DNA from: a phage
Length of the DNA: 64,000 nucleotides
Sequence record: OZ336094.1
Reading direction: 5' to 3' (one strand)
Shown in pieces: positions 1 to 2,085 of this stretch. Within the stretch, counting starts at the first letter, position 1. Each line of letters begins with the position of its first letter. The position numbers and the translations under genes were made by a program. The notes under the pieces were generated by a model that was not told where the DNA came from, ran no database searches, and was given only the letters and a program-made list of their open reading frames with translations.

Positions 1-2085
1 GTGGCAAGGAAACCTGTCAAACAATCTTTTGAAAATGTAGATATTGAAGTTAAAGCCCAACCTGGCAAACAAACACTGGCTATGGATCTTATGCCTGAAG
101 TAATGATTTATGGTGGTGCGGCAGGTTGTGTTTCAGCAGAAACAGAATACCTAACAAGAGACGGTTGGAAACAAATAAGTGAATATGATGGTGAGGATAT
201 TTATCAATACAATCCAAGAAATAAACGTCTTGAATTAGTTACACCATCTTTTGTAGAATATGATGCTAAAGATAATCTGTATTGCATCACAAACGGAGTA
301 GGTGTCTTCCAAGAATTAAGTATGGAACATCGCTTTGTTTTCTACAAGAAGAAAAAATCCAAAAAACATTTTGAAATTCTTGTTGGGGATCTTATTGCAC
401 TACAGCAAGCAGGACACCCATTACGAGGATATATTGAAAATCCTTTTGGTAAACGTGTTCCGTTTAACATTCAAGGTAAACCTAGCACATACCTAAAAAT
501 TCATGAGGTAATGACAAGTGATGATAAGAAATATTGCTTTGAAACTCCAAGCAGTTATGTCGTGTTTAGACGTGGCGATCACATCTTCGTTACTGGGAAT
601 AGCGGCAAAAGCCGTCTGCTACTTCTAAAGGCACTTAAATACGCATATAAAGATCCACTGTTTGGTGGTATTCTTTTCCGTAAAAATACAACAGCTTTAC
701 GTAAATCTGGTGGTTTGTTTACTGAAGCTAAAAAACTTTATCTACCATTAAAGCCTCACGTAAGAGAACAGGCTATGGAGATGGAGTTCAGAGCCACAAA
801 AGGTGGTACACTTAAATTTGACCATCTTGAAAATGATAACGTAACTGCTGAAACTAACCATCAAGGTACACAGTATTCGATGGTGGGGTTTGACGAACTT
901 ACACATTTTACACAATATGAAATGCTATATCTGTTAGGGCGTATGCGTTCTGAATCAGAAACGTCTTTTATGCTGTGTACTTGTAACCCTGATGCGGATA
1001 GTTGGGTGTTAAAGTGGGTGCTTCCTTATTTGGATGAAGCTGGTTATCCACGAGAAGATATGTGTGGCAAACAGCTATACTTTCTTATTGTGCAAGATGA
1101 ACCAGTATTTGCTGAAACAGCAGAAGAGTTGAAAGAAAAGTATCCTGAAAACTGTTTTATGCAAAACCCGAACACAGGTGAAACAGTGGTTATTGAACCA
1201 CAAACATTTGTGTTCATTGGTGGTACTATCTTTGATAACCCTGAACTAATAAGACTTAACCCTAAATACTTAGCTTCTTTGAAGGCTCAAACCGCCGTTA
1301 AGAGAGCACAGCTTTTAGATGGTTGTTGGTTTGCTCGTGCACAAGAAGAGAGTTTCTTTAACAGAGAATGGTTACACGTTATCAAGTTTAAAGATTTACC
1401 AAACAATCTTAAATATATGCGAGCGTGGGATAAAGCAGTATCTGTTCCAACAGAATCTTATCGTTATCCTGACTACACAACATCTGTTAAAATGGCTAAA
1501 GACTCTGATGGAAATTATTACATTTTTGGTGATTATGATTATGATGCTTACGATGAAGGCAGTAAAATTTTTGGTAGATTCAGAAGACTACCAGGTGATC
1601 GAGATAATTTAATTCTAAACCAATGTAAGATTGATGGAGATGAAGTTACAGTTGTATTACCAAAAGATCCTTCTGGTGCTGGTTTGATTGAATATACAGA
1701 ATCAGCTAAAAAACTAATTGCTGAAGGGTTTGTTGTTAAACCAGATGCTATGCCTGGTAACAAGAAAAAATTACAACGCTTTATGCCATTTAGTAGTGCT
1801 TGTCAAAATGGTTTTGTTTATATTGTAGAAGAATCTTTCCCTAACAAAGAAACTCTTGATCATTTCTATAAAGAGATGGAGTCATTTAATGGAGAAAGAT
1901 CTACGGCAACATTAAAAGATGATATTCCAGATGCTGCTGCATCTTGCTTTAATACTTTGTCAAAAGAACAGATGTTTAAAGCAGTAGCAATACCTTCTGC
2001 AACAAATGCATTAACAGGGTATGGTAAGATGGGTGGAAGATCAAGAAACTCTTTATCTTCTCCATATAGTATCAGAGGAAGATAA
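1..2085 (+). CDS. terL: Terminase large subunit; 5' end may lie upstream of the window; ATPase P-loop interrupted by an intein-like insert
   Basis: Split Walker A: ...MIYGGAAG / insert / SGKSRLL..., which reconstitutes GAAGSGKS; long C-terminal nuclease-like region; sits directly upstream of the portal gene. Confidence 0.75.
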   Translation: MARKPVKQSFENVDIEVKAQPGKQTLAMDLMPEVMIYGGAAGCVSAETEYLTRDGWKQISEYDGEDIYQYNPRNKRLELVTPSFVEYDAKDNLYCITNGVGVFQELSMEHRFVFYKKKKSKKHFEILVGDLIALQQAGHPLRGYIENPFGKRVPFNIQGKPSTYLKIHEVMTSDDKKYCFETPSSYVVFRRGDHIFVTGNSGKSRLLLLKALKYAYKDPLFGGILFRKNTTALRKSGGLFTEAKKLYLPLKPHVREQAMEMEFRATKGGTLKFDHLENDNVTAETNHQGTQYSMVGFDELTHFTQYEMLYLLGRMRSESETSFMLCTCNPDADSWVLKWVLPYLDEAGYPREDMCGKQLYFLIVQDEPVFAETAEELKEKYPENCFMQNPNTGETVVIEPQTFVFIGGTIFDNPELIRLNPKYLASLKAQTAVKRAQLLDGCWFARAQEESFFNREWLHVIKFKDLPNNLKYMRAWDKAVSVPTESYRYPDYTTSVKMAKDSDGNYYIFGDYDYDAYDEGSKIFGRFRRLPGDRDNLILNQCKIDGDEVTVVLPKDPSGAGLIEYTESAKKLIAEGFVVKPDAMPGNKKKLQRFMPFSSACQNGFVYIVEESFPNKETLDHFYKEMESFNGERSTATLKDDIPDAAASCFNTLSKEQMFKAVAIPSATNALTGYGKMGGRSRNSLSSPYSIRGR
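127..600 (+). mobile_element. Putative mini-intein (158 aa) in the terminase P-loop
   Basis: Insert begins with Cys (CVSAETEY..., block-A-like), ends ...DHIFVTGN followed by Ser (+1 residue); removing it restores a canonical Walker A; too short for a homing-endonuclease domain. Confidence 0.55.

Follow-up and report, generated by a model that had tools for sequence, protein, structure and literature searches.

The window analysed here, a 64,000-nucleotide stretch of Escherichia phage Paula (sequence record OZ336094.1), a phi92-like Justusliebigvirus, opens with the gene for the large terminase subunit, TerL (Table 1). Its product is 100% identical to PAULA_0197 of phage Paula and 99.4% identical to the equivalent phi92 protein, gp119, whose gene is preceded by an AGGAGG ribosome-binding site. 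TerL matches the Pfam families Terminase_6N and Terminase_6C as well as PHROG 979 (E = 4e-221). Its Walker A motif is interrupted by an insert that runs in frame, with zero stop codons across 474 nt. When this insert is excised in silico, the Terminase_6N profile match becomes contiguous, and the spliced sequence has the layout of a Terminase_6-type protein, with an N-terminal Walker A/B ATPase (PF03237, E = 9e-19) and a C-terminal RNase H-like nuclease (PF17289, just under the cut-off). Each listed phage record contains one terminase locus, and no further member of the intein family turned up when the window was searched in all six frames. A preliminary description of this DNA had placed between GGAAG and SGKS a 158-residue insert with Cys first, Asn last and Ser next; it was correct to the base. 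Cys1 of the insert is Cys43 of the TerL precursor.

Table 1. Features of the Paula TerL gene and its insert; residues within the insert are counted from Cys1
Feature	Position (nt)	Strand	Details
TerL (large terminase subunit) precursor gene	1..2085	+	694 codons plus stop; GTG start; from the ORF list
N-extein, aa 1-42	1..126	+	Ends GGAAG (nt 112-126), first half of Walker A; intein-free homologues read ...IYGGAAG then SGKS
Predicted mini-intein, Cys1-Asn158	127..600	+	158 aa, 18.45 kDa; HINT splicing domain only, without homing endonuclease
Block A (N1), C1-V-S-A-E-T-E-Y-L-T-R-D-G-W	127..168	+	Cys1 as N-terminal nucleophile; C1, E7, G13, W14 invariant (16-sequence alignment)
Block B (N3), S65-M-E-H68-R69-F70	319..336	+	S/TxxH motif; Arg at B:11, Phe at B:12; H68 invariant (16-sequence alignment)
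Lys-rich loop, Y73-KKKKSKK-80	343..366	+	Between strands 69-73 and 82-85 (alignment, secondary structure)
Block F (C2), D132-D-K-K-Y-C137-F-E-T-P141-S-S-Y144-V-V-F	520..567	+	Cys137 at putative F:4; without block F His; D132, K135, Y136, C137 invariant
Block G (C1), H152-I-F-V-T156-G157-N158, then Ser+1	580..603	+	G157, N158, S+1 invariant (16-sequence alignment)
C-extein, aa 201-694	601..2082	+	Starts SGKS (nt 601-612), second half of Walker A; remaining ATPase and nuclease domain

Comparison of TerL homologues reveals several alleles at this site. Alignment with intein-free terminases, put forward earlier as a check, bears out the reading of the segment as an in-frame insertion: GGAAGSGKS is uninterrupted in more than 60 of the listed homologues. 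A further 37 listed homologues carry an insert, all at the same peptide bond, with Cys as the first residue and (T/S)GN↓SGKS at the end (↓ marks the splice junction). These inserts belong to two size classes, mini (146-159 aa) and large (246-328 aa), and large inserts of 301-328 aa contain LAGLIDADG-like motifs (LRLQVAVMADGR, HWDGS) together with weak PF14528 matches. At 80% identity or more, about 134 phage records match the insert and about 133 the extein, which leaves no sign of a close allele lacking the intein, although it should be noted that tblastn matches of the spliced extein start at residue 60 and leave the junction uncovered, because the low-complexity filter masks the LLLLK region. 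The insert appears to be fixed in Stephanstirmvirinae. Purifying selection on it (dN/dS about 0.06) is as strong as on the exteins: across Justusliebigvirus, Phapecoctavirus and KP13-26, dN/dS is 0.055-0.073 for the intein versus 0.041-0.064 for the exteins, values that are approximate because dS has reached saturation (1.4-2.2) at the distances separating these genera. Amino-acid divergence for the same comparison is equal (85-88% for the intein versus 87-89% for the exteins).

An AF2 model of the insert (pLDDT 93, pTM 0.84) contains one HINT domain, the fold expected of an intein, and lacks any extra domain. Endonuclease HMMs match nothing in it, in agreement with the initial view that the insert is devoid of a homing endonuclease. 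The residues on which splicing depends are in place, namely the nucleophile at position 1 (Cys1), the block B T/S-x-x-H motif, the C-terminal Asn and Ser at +1. The catalytic set is nevertheless non-canonical. Asp occupies F:4 in most class 1 inteins; of the features typical of that class the Paula intein has Cys1, with Cys instead of Asp at F:4 and Gly157 instead of His at G:6, and it is without the block F His. The penultimate His is common in inteins but not obligatory, and while the penultimate Gly had been correctly noticed in the preliminary description, it is no oddity here, as nearly all best-match C-termini of the family read (T/S)-G-N. The invariant Cys137 in block F had been overlooked at that stage, and its invariance at F:4 raises a real question over the splicing route.

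The relationship of the insert to known inteins is not visible to standard tools. Searches of Pfam, of NCBIfam and, with the single sequence, of the PDB gave no intein match, just WW-domain noise, and an intein match in the PDB needed a family profile. This profile matched AceL NrdHF-1-1 (PDB 6ZGQ; E = 2.3e-11), with S65, H68, R69 and B:12 in register. AceL NrdHF-1-1 is split in nature, belongs to class 3 as an atypical member and comes from a phage-like contig of an Antarctic lake (Hoffmann et al. 2020, PMC7891396); in the HMM alignment to 6ZGQ the block B residues fall on S65, H68, R69 and M70 of AceL NrdHF. Placement of Cys137 at F:4 is provisional and follows from published residue numbers and spacing, by analogy to C124/P128 of AceL NrdHF, because blocks F and G gave no residue-level alignment to 6ZGQ. 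A separate profile of the C-terminal 43 residues returned clostridial toxin cell-wall-binding repeats (DGKKYYF) from the PDB, which was discarded as a spurious motif match.

The family to which the Paula intein belongs is very large, counting about 10,000 members, and mostly phage-borne, with a signature consisting of Cys1, S/TxxH, Cys at F:4 and a T/S-G-N end. An exhaustive profile search yielded 2,187 cluster representatives at E <= 1e-10; this was the informative search, a word-indexed one with the intein profile having returned 10 fragments only. Members include the endonuclease-containing alleles at the TerL site, all metagenomic (P0023, P0025, P0026, P0028, P0064 and P0111), and relatives elsewhere: P-loop inserts in the KIL3 primase/helicase, in a RecD-like protein of Vibrio phage 277E43-1 and in an unnamed ATPase of Enterocloster phage CB457P1, and an insert in RtcB of Bacillus phage JBP901. 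All share with the Paula intein the motifs C-V/L-x-x-x-T-E-Y/F-L-T-x-x-G-W, S/TxE/xH and D-G-x-K-Y-C-F and an (I/V)-T-G-N end, and most also share the insertion logic G↓(S/T)GK(S/T). The endonuclease-bearing relatives, whose splicing halves are 26-44% identical to the Paula intein, contain about 170 aa of LAGLIDADG-type domain at their centre (weak PF14528 matches) and are presumably still mobile on that account; the Paula intein has in its place a 60-residue HINT-internal segment, with the Lys-rich loop at the position of the LAGLIDADG domain of the larger relatives.

Intein-free and endonuclease-bearing alleles at one site, the HINT fold and the conserved blocks A, B, F and G support the mini-intein reading first proposed for the TerL P-loop insert. 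We consider it highly probable that nt 127-600 encode a functional, endonuclease-free mini-intein in the Walker A motif of the sole TerL gene, with canonical class 1 splicing as the likeliest chemistry, and that it descends from a LAGLIDADG intein and is now vertically inherited. We infer both the splicing of Paula TerL and its chemical route, the former because the only terminase gene of these viable phages has its Walker A motif split. TerL would be translated as a 79.2-kDa precursor unable to bind ATP, because 158 residues part GGAAG from SGKS, and the HINT domain would fold and then remove itself, a step needed before DNA packaging. In a class 1 scheme, Cys1 would undergo an N-S acyl shift at Gly42-Cys43, with help from the block B residues Ser65 and His68, and the side chain of Ser+1 would receive the N-extein. 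Cyclisation of Asn158 would then free the 18.5-kDa intein, with Arg69 (B:11) probably substituting for the absent penultimate His, and an O-N shift would create the Gly42-Ser peptide bond of a 60.8-kDa terminase with an intact P-loop, GAAGSGKS. The predicted spliced-junction peptide is QTLAMDLMPEVMIYGGAAGSGK, with an average mass of 2240.6 Da. Cys137, which replaces the usual Asp, probably takes part in catalysis. As for origin, the ancestor was probably a LAGLIDADG-containing intein homing into P-loop sites of phage genes, which since lost its endonuclease, the Paula-type intein being now presumably inherited vertically within Stephanstirmvirinae.

The class 1 first step is uncertain because the nearest characterised relative uses a class 3 route. 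It is conceivable, with clearly lower probability, that splicing of the intein follows a route of class 3 type or a hybrid one, in which Cys137 attacks Gly42-Cys43 directly or takes the N-extein from Cys1, and the resulting block F branched intermediate passes it to Ser+1. AceL NrdHF, the closest solved relative, has the same layout and is proven to be class 3, and Thr at G:5 (T156), Ser+1 and the Cys assigned to F:4 all fit the class 3 signature. Among the best library matches, Cys at F:4 (missing from just 3 of the 183 C-termini aligned) is as invariant in the family as Cys1, yet a dispensable Cys1 would hardly be expected to occur, as it does, in 197 of 197 aligned N-termini and throughout the TerL inserts. 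Rare family members without it do exist (P0231, ..RDE↓AL.., and P0205, GPFG↓PL..) and retain the remaining features, so the scaffold can do without Cys1. The working definition of Hoffmann et al., however, demands that position 1 be other than Cys, and the Paula intein has Cys there. It also has Phe70 in place of the Trp at B:12 of the WCT triplet, although AceL NrdHF, with Met, is class 3 all the same. A Cys at F:4 is moreover compatible with class 1, in which such inteins form a recognised, polyphyletic category according to the summary in PMC3196547.

It is intriguing to hypothesize that Cys1 and Cys137 are both catalytic, either in a thioester relay from Cys1 through Cys F:4 to Ser+1 or as a reversible Cys1-Cys137 disulfide that locks the precursor, a rather unlikely arrangement with wider consequences. 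If it held, the family would represent a Cys1-bearing stock from which class 3 variants like AceL NrdHF arise by simple loss of Cys1, and protein splicing would place DNA packaging in phi92-like phages under redox or conditional control.

Returning to the mini-intein with class 1 chemistry as the preferred reading, other explanations of the insert itself (an ordinary extra domain, a BIL-type cleavage-only domain, an intron) were rejected after the evidence on each was weighed. It is very improbable that mature terminase retains the insert as a degenerate or splicing-incompetent HINT domain, or that the insert cleaves without ligation in the manner of BIL domains. Such an idea could draw on the original phi92 note, which named an "N-terminal endonuclease domain", on the missing canonical penultimate and block F histidines, and on the silence of standard intein HMMs; an endonuclease fold is nevertheless absent, and AceL NrdHF, with the same non-canonical residues, splices to completion in minutes. 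The insert is common to all Stephanstirmvirinae, with no close intein-free allele in the phage collection. Even so, a segment shared by homologous terminases as an ordinary domain, named at the outset as the observation that would speak against an intein, did not materialise: distant homologues either lack the segment or have, at this very bond, a version with an endonuclease. With 158 residues in its P-loop an ATPase would not be expected to function, and the listed records have one TerL locus each. The splicing residues C1, H68, N158 and the +1 nucleophile are all invariant, the last of these being missing from BIL domains (PMC7664689). Removal of the insert as nucleic acid, by a self-splicing intron or as a DNA-level mobile insertion, has a negligible probability: group I introns do occur in phage genes, including those of sister phages (the BASEL table gives 1 intron in Bas60), and the annotation of the KIL3 helicase gene, which has a related insert, joins two pieces, but the Paula insert is in frame, stop-free and under strong protein-level purifying selection, and its HINT fold has catalytic residues exactly at both ends.

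The intein appears to be unannotated and unreported in this group of coliphages, which comprises widely used therapeutic and model phages, including phi92, phAPEC8/ESCO13 and BASEL phages Bas60 and Bas61, and about 130 GenBank genomes. GenBank records read "terminase large subunit" only, the BLAST label for phi92 gp119 in the Paula record is "large terminase with N-terminal endonuclease domain", and the intein count of the near-identical phage Bas61 is 0 in the BASEL table. With no Pfam or NCBIfam model recognising the insert, it will continue to escape annotation pipelines. This has a practical side for the engineering or expression of TerL in these phages, where the gene product is a precursor. 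A family member in an E. coli phage also makes both the choice between class 1 and class 3 first steps and splicing-gated packaging genetically testable.

Inteins in terminase P-loops are established biology, and the Paula intein leaves the general picture of inteins unchanged. The claim that such P-loops are known intein sites finds its precedents in mycobacteriophages, where TerL1-a and TerL1-b are Walker A P-loop terminase inteins (Kelley et al. 2016, PMC5050341). TerL P-loop inteins splice efficiently in reporters, their splicing is thought to be required for formation of the active site and pentamer assembly, and non-His penultimate residues, Gly included, are common and functional in phage inteins (PMC5050341). 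The likeness to the Paula intein is one of site and description, both interrupting the P-loop of a phage large terminase ATPase. The mycobacteriophage inteins reside in Terminase_1 proteins of phages of Actinobacteria, whereas the Paula intein is found in a Terminase_6 protein of coliphages; TerL1-a interrupts GK↓T, between the invariant Lys and Thr, and the Paula intein G↓SGKS, with the Lys three residues further on. Endonuclease activity was seen when BAKA TerL1-b and Bethlehem TerL1-c were tested, in contrast to the endonuclease-free Paula intein.

AceL NrdHF is the sole characterised relative of the family. It shares with the Paula intein a phage origin, Ser65, His68 and Arg69 of block B under near-identical numbering, a hydrophobic residue other than Trp at B:12 (Met versus Phe70), Cys at the presumed F:4 with Pro four residues on, the lack of a block F His, and a Thr-Gly-Asn↓Ser end. 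In AceL NrdHF, which ends T144-G145-N146↓S, Arg69 compensates for the penultimate Gly, and a G-to-H change abolished activity (PMC7891396). The two nevertheless have only about 20% overall identity. The proven class 3 intein has Ala1 where Cys1 is invariant in the Paula intein; it is encoded by two genes that flank a GIY-YIG endonuclease gene, and it interrupts a ribonucleotide reductase gene, whereas the Paula intein is contiguous, endonuclease-free and located in TerL. Within class 1, the closest parallel is the polyphyletic category of inteins with Cys at F:4, recognised by Tori and Perler (2011) as summarised in PMC3196547, which, like the Paula intein, combine Cys1 with Cys, not Asp, at that position.

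The large terminase (TerL) gene is an ORF of 694 codons on the plus strand (1-2085), whose GTG start codon coincides exactly with the start of the window. By megablast the window is Escherichia phage Paula (100%), with 99.4% identity at the terminase region to phi92 (Justusliebigvirus, Stephanstirmvirinae); the ORF is the equivalent of the large-terminase gene gp119 of phi92 and is succeeded by the portal gene. Re-reading of the sequence proved the preliminary description exact in placing an insert at 127-600 that starts with Cys, ends with Asn and is flanked by GGAAG and SGKS. 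In the intact precursor the match to the Pfam profile Terminase_6N does not begin until residue 201, which is profile position 8, and in silico removal of nt 127-600 gives an unbroken match over profile positions 1-213 with a higher score. The insert is foreign to the terminase.

A search of the precursor against 5.8 billion proteins, with 120 homologues inspected, returned three groups, namely uninterrupted terminases, those with an insert of 146-159 aa and those with an insert of 246-328 aa. Many of the 120 carry an uninterrupted IYGGAAGSGKSRLLL, and the closest uninterrupted ones are the library proteins P0019-P0022, at 63% identity. The inserts all interrupt one and the same bond; each has Cys as its first residue and [T/S]-G-N as its last three, before SGKS, and the large ones contain LAGLIDADG-like motifs (LRLQVAVMADGR, HWDGS) together with weak PF14528 matches. 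Insertion at one site, scattered occurrence, and alleles that either have or lack a homing endonuclease together amount to the classical intein pattern; the 158-aa segment is common to close relatives, yet is no ordinary terminase domain.

The single insert sequence gave no meaningful match in Pfam, NCBIfam or a phmmer search of the PDB; a profile of 16 aligned mini-inserts (A1) matches the AceL NrdHF intein (PDB 6ZGQ), which is naturally split, at E = 2.3e-11. The AlphaFold2 model derived from A1 is all-beta and confident (pLDDT 93, pTM 0.84), Foldseek ranks 6ZGQ first, and all significant matches are intein, BIL or Hedgehog HINT domains. As nothing resembling an endonuclease domain is seen in the model, the label "mini-intein" is correct. 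Invariant in A1 are C1, E7, G13, W14, P40, H68, P98, D132, K135, Y136, C137, G157, N158 and S+1, the first C-extein residue. A Lys-rich loop, Y-KKKKSKK (intein residues 73-80, window 343-366), has an A-rich coding sequence (AAGAAGAAAAAATCCAAAAAA). Among the 17 closest TerL inteins, those of 158-159 aa, the loop hardly varies; it is missing from the Vibrio-phage minis, and lies where larger relatives hold the LAGLIDADG domain.

Features of the TerL insert, its intein motifs and related inteins
Feature	Position or residues	Strand	Remark
GGAAG	residues 38-42, nt 112-126	+	first half of Walker A
Cys, first insert residue	residue 43, TGT, nt 127-129	+	
C-terminus ...HIFVTGN of the 158-residue insert	Asn at nt 598-600	+	
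SGKSRLLLLK	from residue 201	+	directly after insert
Block A	C1, G13, W14		A1 alignment
Block B	S65-x-x-H68		A1 alignment
Block F	K-Y-C137-F		A1 alignment
Block G	T156-G157-N158, then Ser+1		A1 alignment
Pseudomonas phage KIL3 primase/helicase	Walker A loop		GSASG/.../TGKST
Vibrio phage 277E43-1 RecD-like protein			GDAG/.../TGKST
Enterocloster phage CB457P1 ATPase			GGSG/.../SGKTT
Bacillus phage JBP901 RtcB	DIG/CGM site		VDIG/../CGM
L006 (other-phage locus)	601-1557		endonuclease-bearing family intein
L007 (other-phage locus)	601-1524		endonuclease-bearing family intein
L008 (other-phage locus)	601-1536		endonuclease-bearing family intein
L009 (other-phage locus)	601-1566		endonuclease-bearing family intein

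A Walker A motif with 158 residues between GGAAG and SGKS should not be able to bind ATP, and the listed phage records have a single TerL locus each, with the motif so split; from these two points we infer that the insert splices out of the TerL precursor. The precedent of terminase P-loops as intein sites, mentioned in the preliminary description, is borne out by the literature, mycobacteriophage examples being well documented (PMC5050341) and helicase and terminase P-loops being favoured sites (PMC2807308). The records of phi92, Paula, EmilieFrey (Bas61), PaulScherrer (Bas60), KMB37, ESCO13 and KP13-26 carry no intein annotation and name a terminase or hypothetical protein; a terminase bearing an endonuclease domain is mentioned in the phi92 gp119 BLAST label in the Paula record and in the KMB37 product name. 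No cluster member bears an intein name in NCBI, UniRef or IMG. The BASEL supplementary table (S5), which counts inteins explicitly, gives 0 for Bas61 and, for the sister Justusliebigvirus PaulScherrer (Bas60; MZ501100), two inteins and one intron elsewhere in the genome, leaving the TerL intein uncounted. Among the papers covered, a full-text search for "intein" alongside the phage-group names found nothing relevant. The P-loop terminase mini-intein of the Paula/phi92 group has apparently been unannotated until now; the original observation is confirmed and its interpretation as an intein supported.

By tblastn at 80% identity or above, the insert occurs in about 134 phage records and the terminase extein in about 133, so that the intein is apparently fixed across the Stephanstirmvirinae. 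Across the window (Justusliebigvirus), Phapecoctavirus ESCO13 and Klebsiella phage KP13-26, intein and exteins are similar in identity (85-88% and 87-89%), in dN/dS (0.055-0.073 versus 0.041-0.064, approximate since dS is saturated) and in GC (35% and 37%), which indicates that the intein has diverged in step with its host gene while its protein sequence was strongly constrained, as expected for an endonuclease-free intein obliged to splice in an essential gene. Its splicing halves are 39-44% identical to those of the endonuclease-bearing P0023 and P0111 and 26-42% to the 146-aa Vibrio-phage minis; being equally close to both, they suggest that the endonuclease was lost more than once, independently. 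In Aeromonas phage 4L372XY, TerL (57% identical; NC_048772.1, 66092-67225) is annotated as a pair of adjacent CDS, aligns in two pieces and may be another interrupted terminase, by intein, intron or gene splitting. Several "Campylobacter phage" deposits (MG065639, Campylobacter phage A150; MG065676; others) are ~100% identical to terminase regions of phi92-like or other coliphages; their host labels look doubtful, with contaminating coliphages perhaps the source.

Scanning the 64-kb window in six frames with a profile of the TerL-type family revealed no second copy. Genes lie on the plus strand from 1 to about 34900, and most large ORFs on the minus strand from about 35300 on. ARAGORN detected no tRNA genes in 1-64000; the tRNA cluster of phi92-like phages is directly upstream of the terminase and hence outside the window. 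The TerL-portal intergenic region (2086-2182) contains a sigma-70-like site (TTGACA-18 nt-TAAAGT, with an upstream TG, 2089-2118), promoter-like sites there being no more numerous than in shuffles, followed by a perfect 8-bp hairpin without a strong T tail (TCTACCCC-TTCAAT-GGGGTAGA, 2130-2151).

The family extends far beyond these phages. With A1 as query, exhaustive HMMER searching of 1.84 billion cluster representatives matched 10,165 proteins at E <= 0.001 and 2,187 at E <= 1e-10. Among the top 148 of the 10,165, the 197 N-termini whose alignment starts at profile position 1 have Cys1 without exception, and Cys at F:4 is missing from just 3 of 183 aligned C-termini, where G:6 is almost always Gly and Asn is constant at G:7. 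At +1 the family has Ser (111), Cys (48) or Thr (24), and xGK[S/T] follows in 80/183, placing these inserts in a P-loop. Most inserts in these 148 proteins are 280-360 aa long and hence carry an endonuclease, minis numbering about two dozen. Four further genes in annotated phage genomes are interrupted by the same family, with a two-piece join annotated in KIL3 only and plain CDS in 277E43-1, JBP901 and CB457P1. The inteins of these four genes, which carry an endonuclease (L006-L009), have in common C-V-D-x-D-T-E-F/Y-L...G-W, S-x-E-H, LAGLIDADG-like motifs, D-G-F-K-Y-C-F and I-T-G-N. Rare family members have a non-nucleophile in place of Cys1. In P0231 the second intein (residues about 520-625) reads ..VRDE/ALSGDHELL, the same junction as in AceL NrdHF, and P0205 (residues about 39-122) starts GPFG/PLSNDTEFL. 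Class 3-like variants may thus originate within the Cys1/Cys-F:4 family through loss of Cys1.

Splicing most probably follows the class 1 pathway. Cys1 would initiate it, Ser65 and His68 would put strain on the scissile bond, and Ser+1 would serve as acceptor; Arg69 would aid cyclisation of Asn158, with Cys137 in place of Asp at F:4. This invariant Cys at a normally Asp position, and Thr at G:5, were overlooked in the preliminary description; together they supply two of the three residues in the "WCT" signature of class 3 (PMC2807308). A class 3-type or relay route via Cys137 is the main rival, drawing on the invariance of that residue, the occurrence of Cys1-less members and the class 3 status of the nearest characterised relative; it seems rather improbable, given strict Cys1 conservation over hundreds of divergent copies, the absence of Trp at B:12 and the recognition of class 1 inteins with Cys at F:4 as a category (PMC3196547).

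Comparison with AceL NrdHF, which has Ala1 and an M-C-T triplet and is experimentally class 3 (PMC7891396), also bears on the penultimate residue. Its key residues S65, H68, R69, M70, C124 (F:4), P128, T144, G145, N146 and S+1 (PMC7891396) have as counterparts in the TerL intein S65, H68, R69, F70, C137, P141, T156, G157, N158 and S+1, numbering being identical in the N-terminal half. The penultimate Gly, pointed out earlier as a departure from the usual His, is indeed present and is a family trait rather than a defect: in AceL NrdHF the G145H change abolishes activity, and Arg69, also present here, hydrogen-bonds the C-scissile carbonyl, partly substituting for the absent His (PMC7891396). 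Kelley et al. likewise showed for a phage intein that replacing its penultimate Gly by His makes splicing poorer (PMC5050341). The modest twist is that the TerL intein of Paula belongs to a large Cys1/Cys-F:4/T-G-N family whose sole studied relative is class 3.
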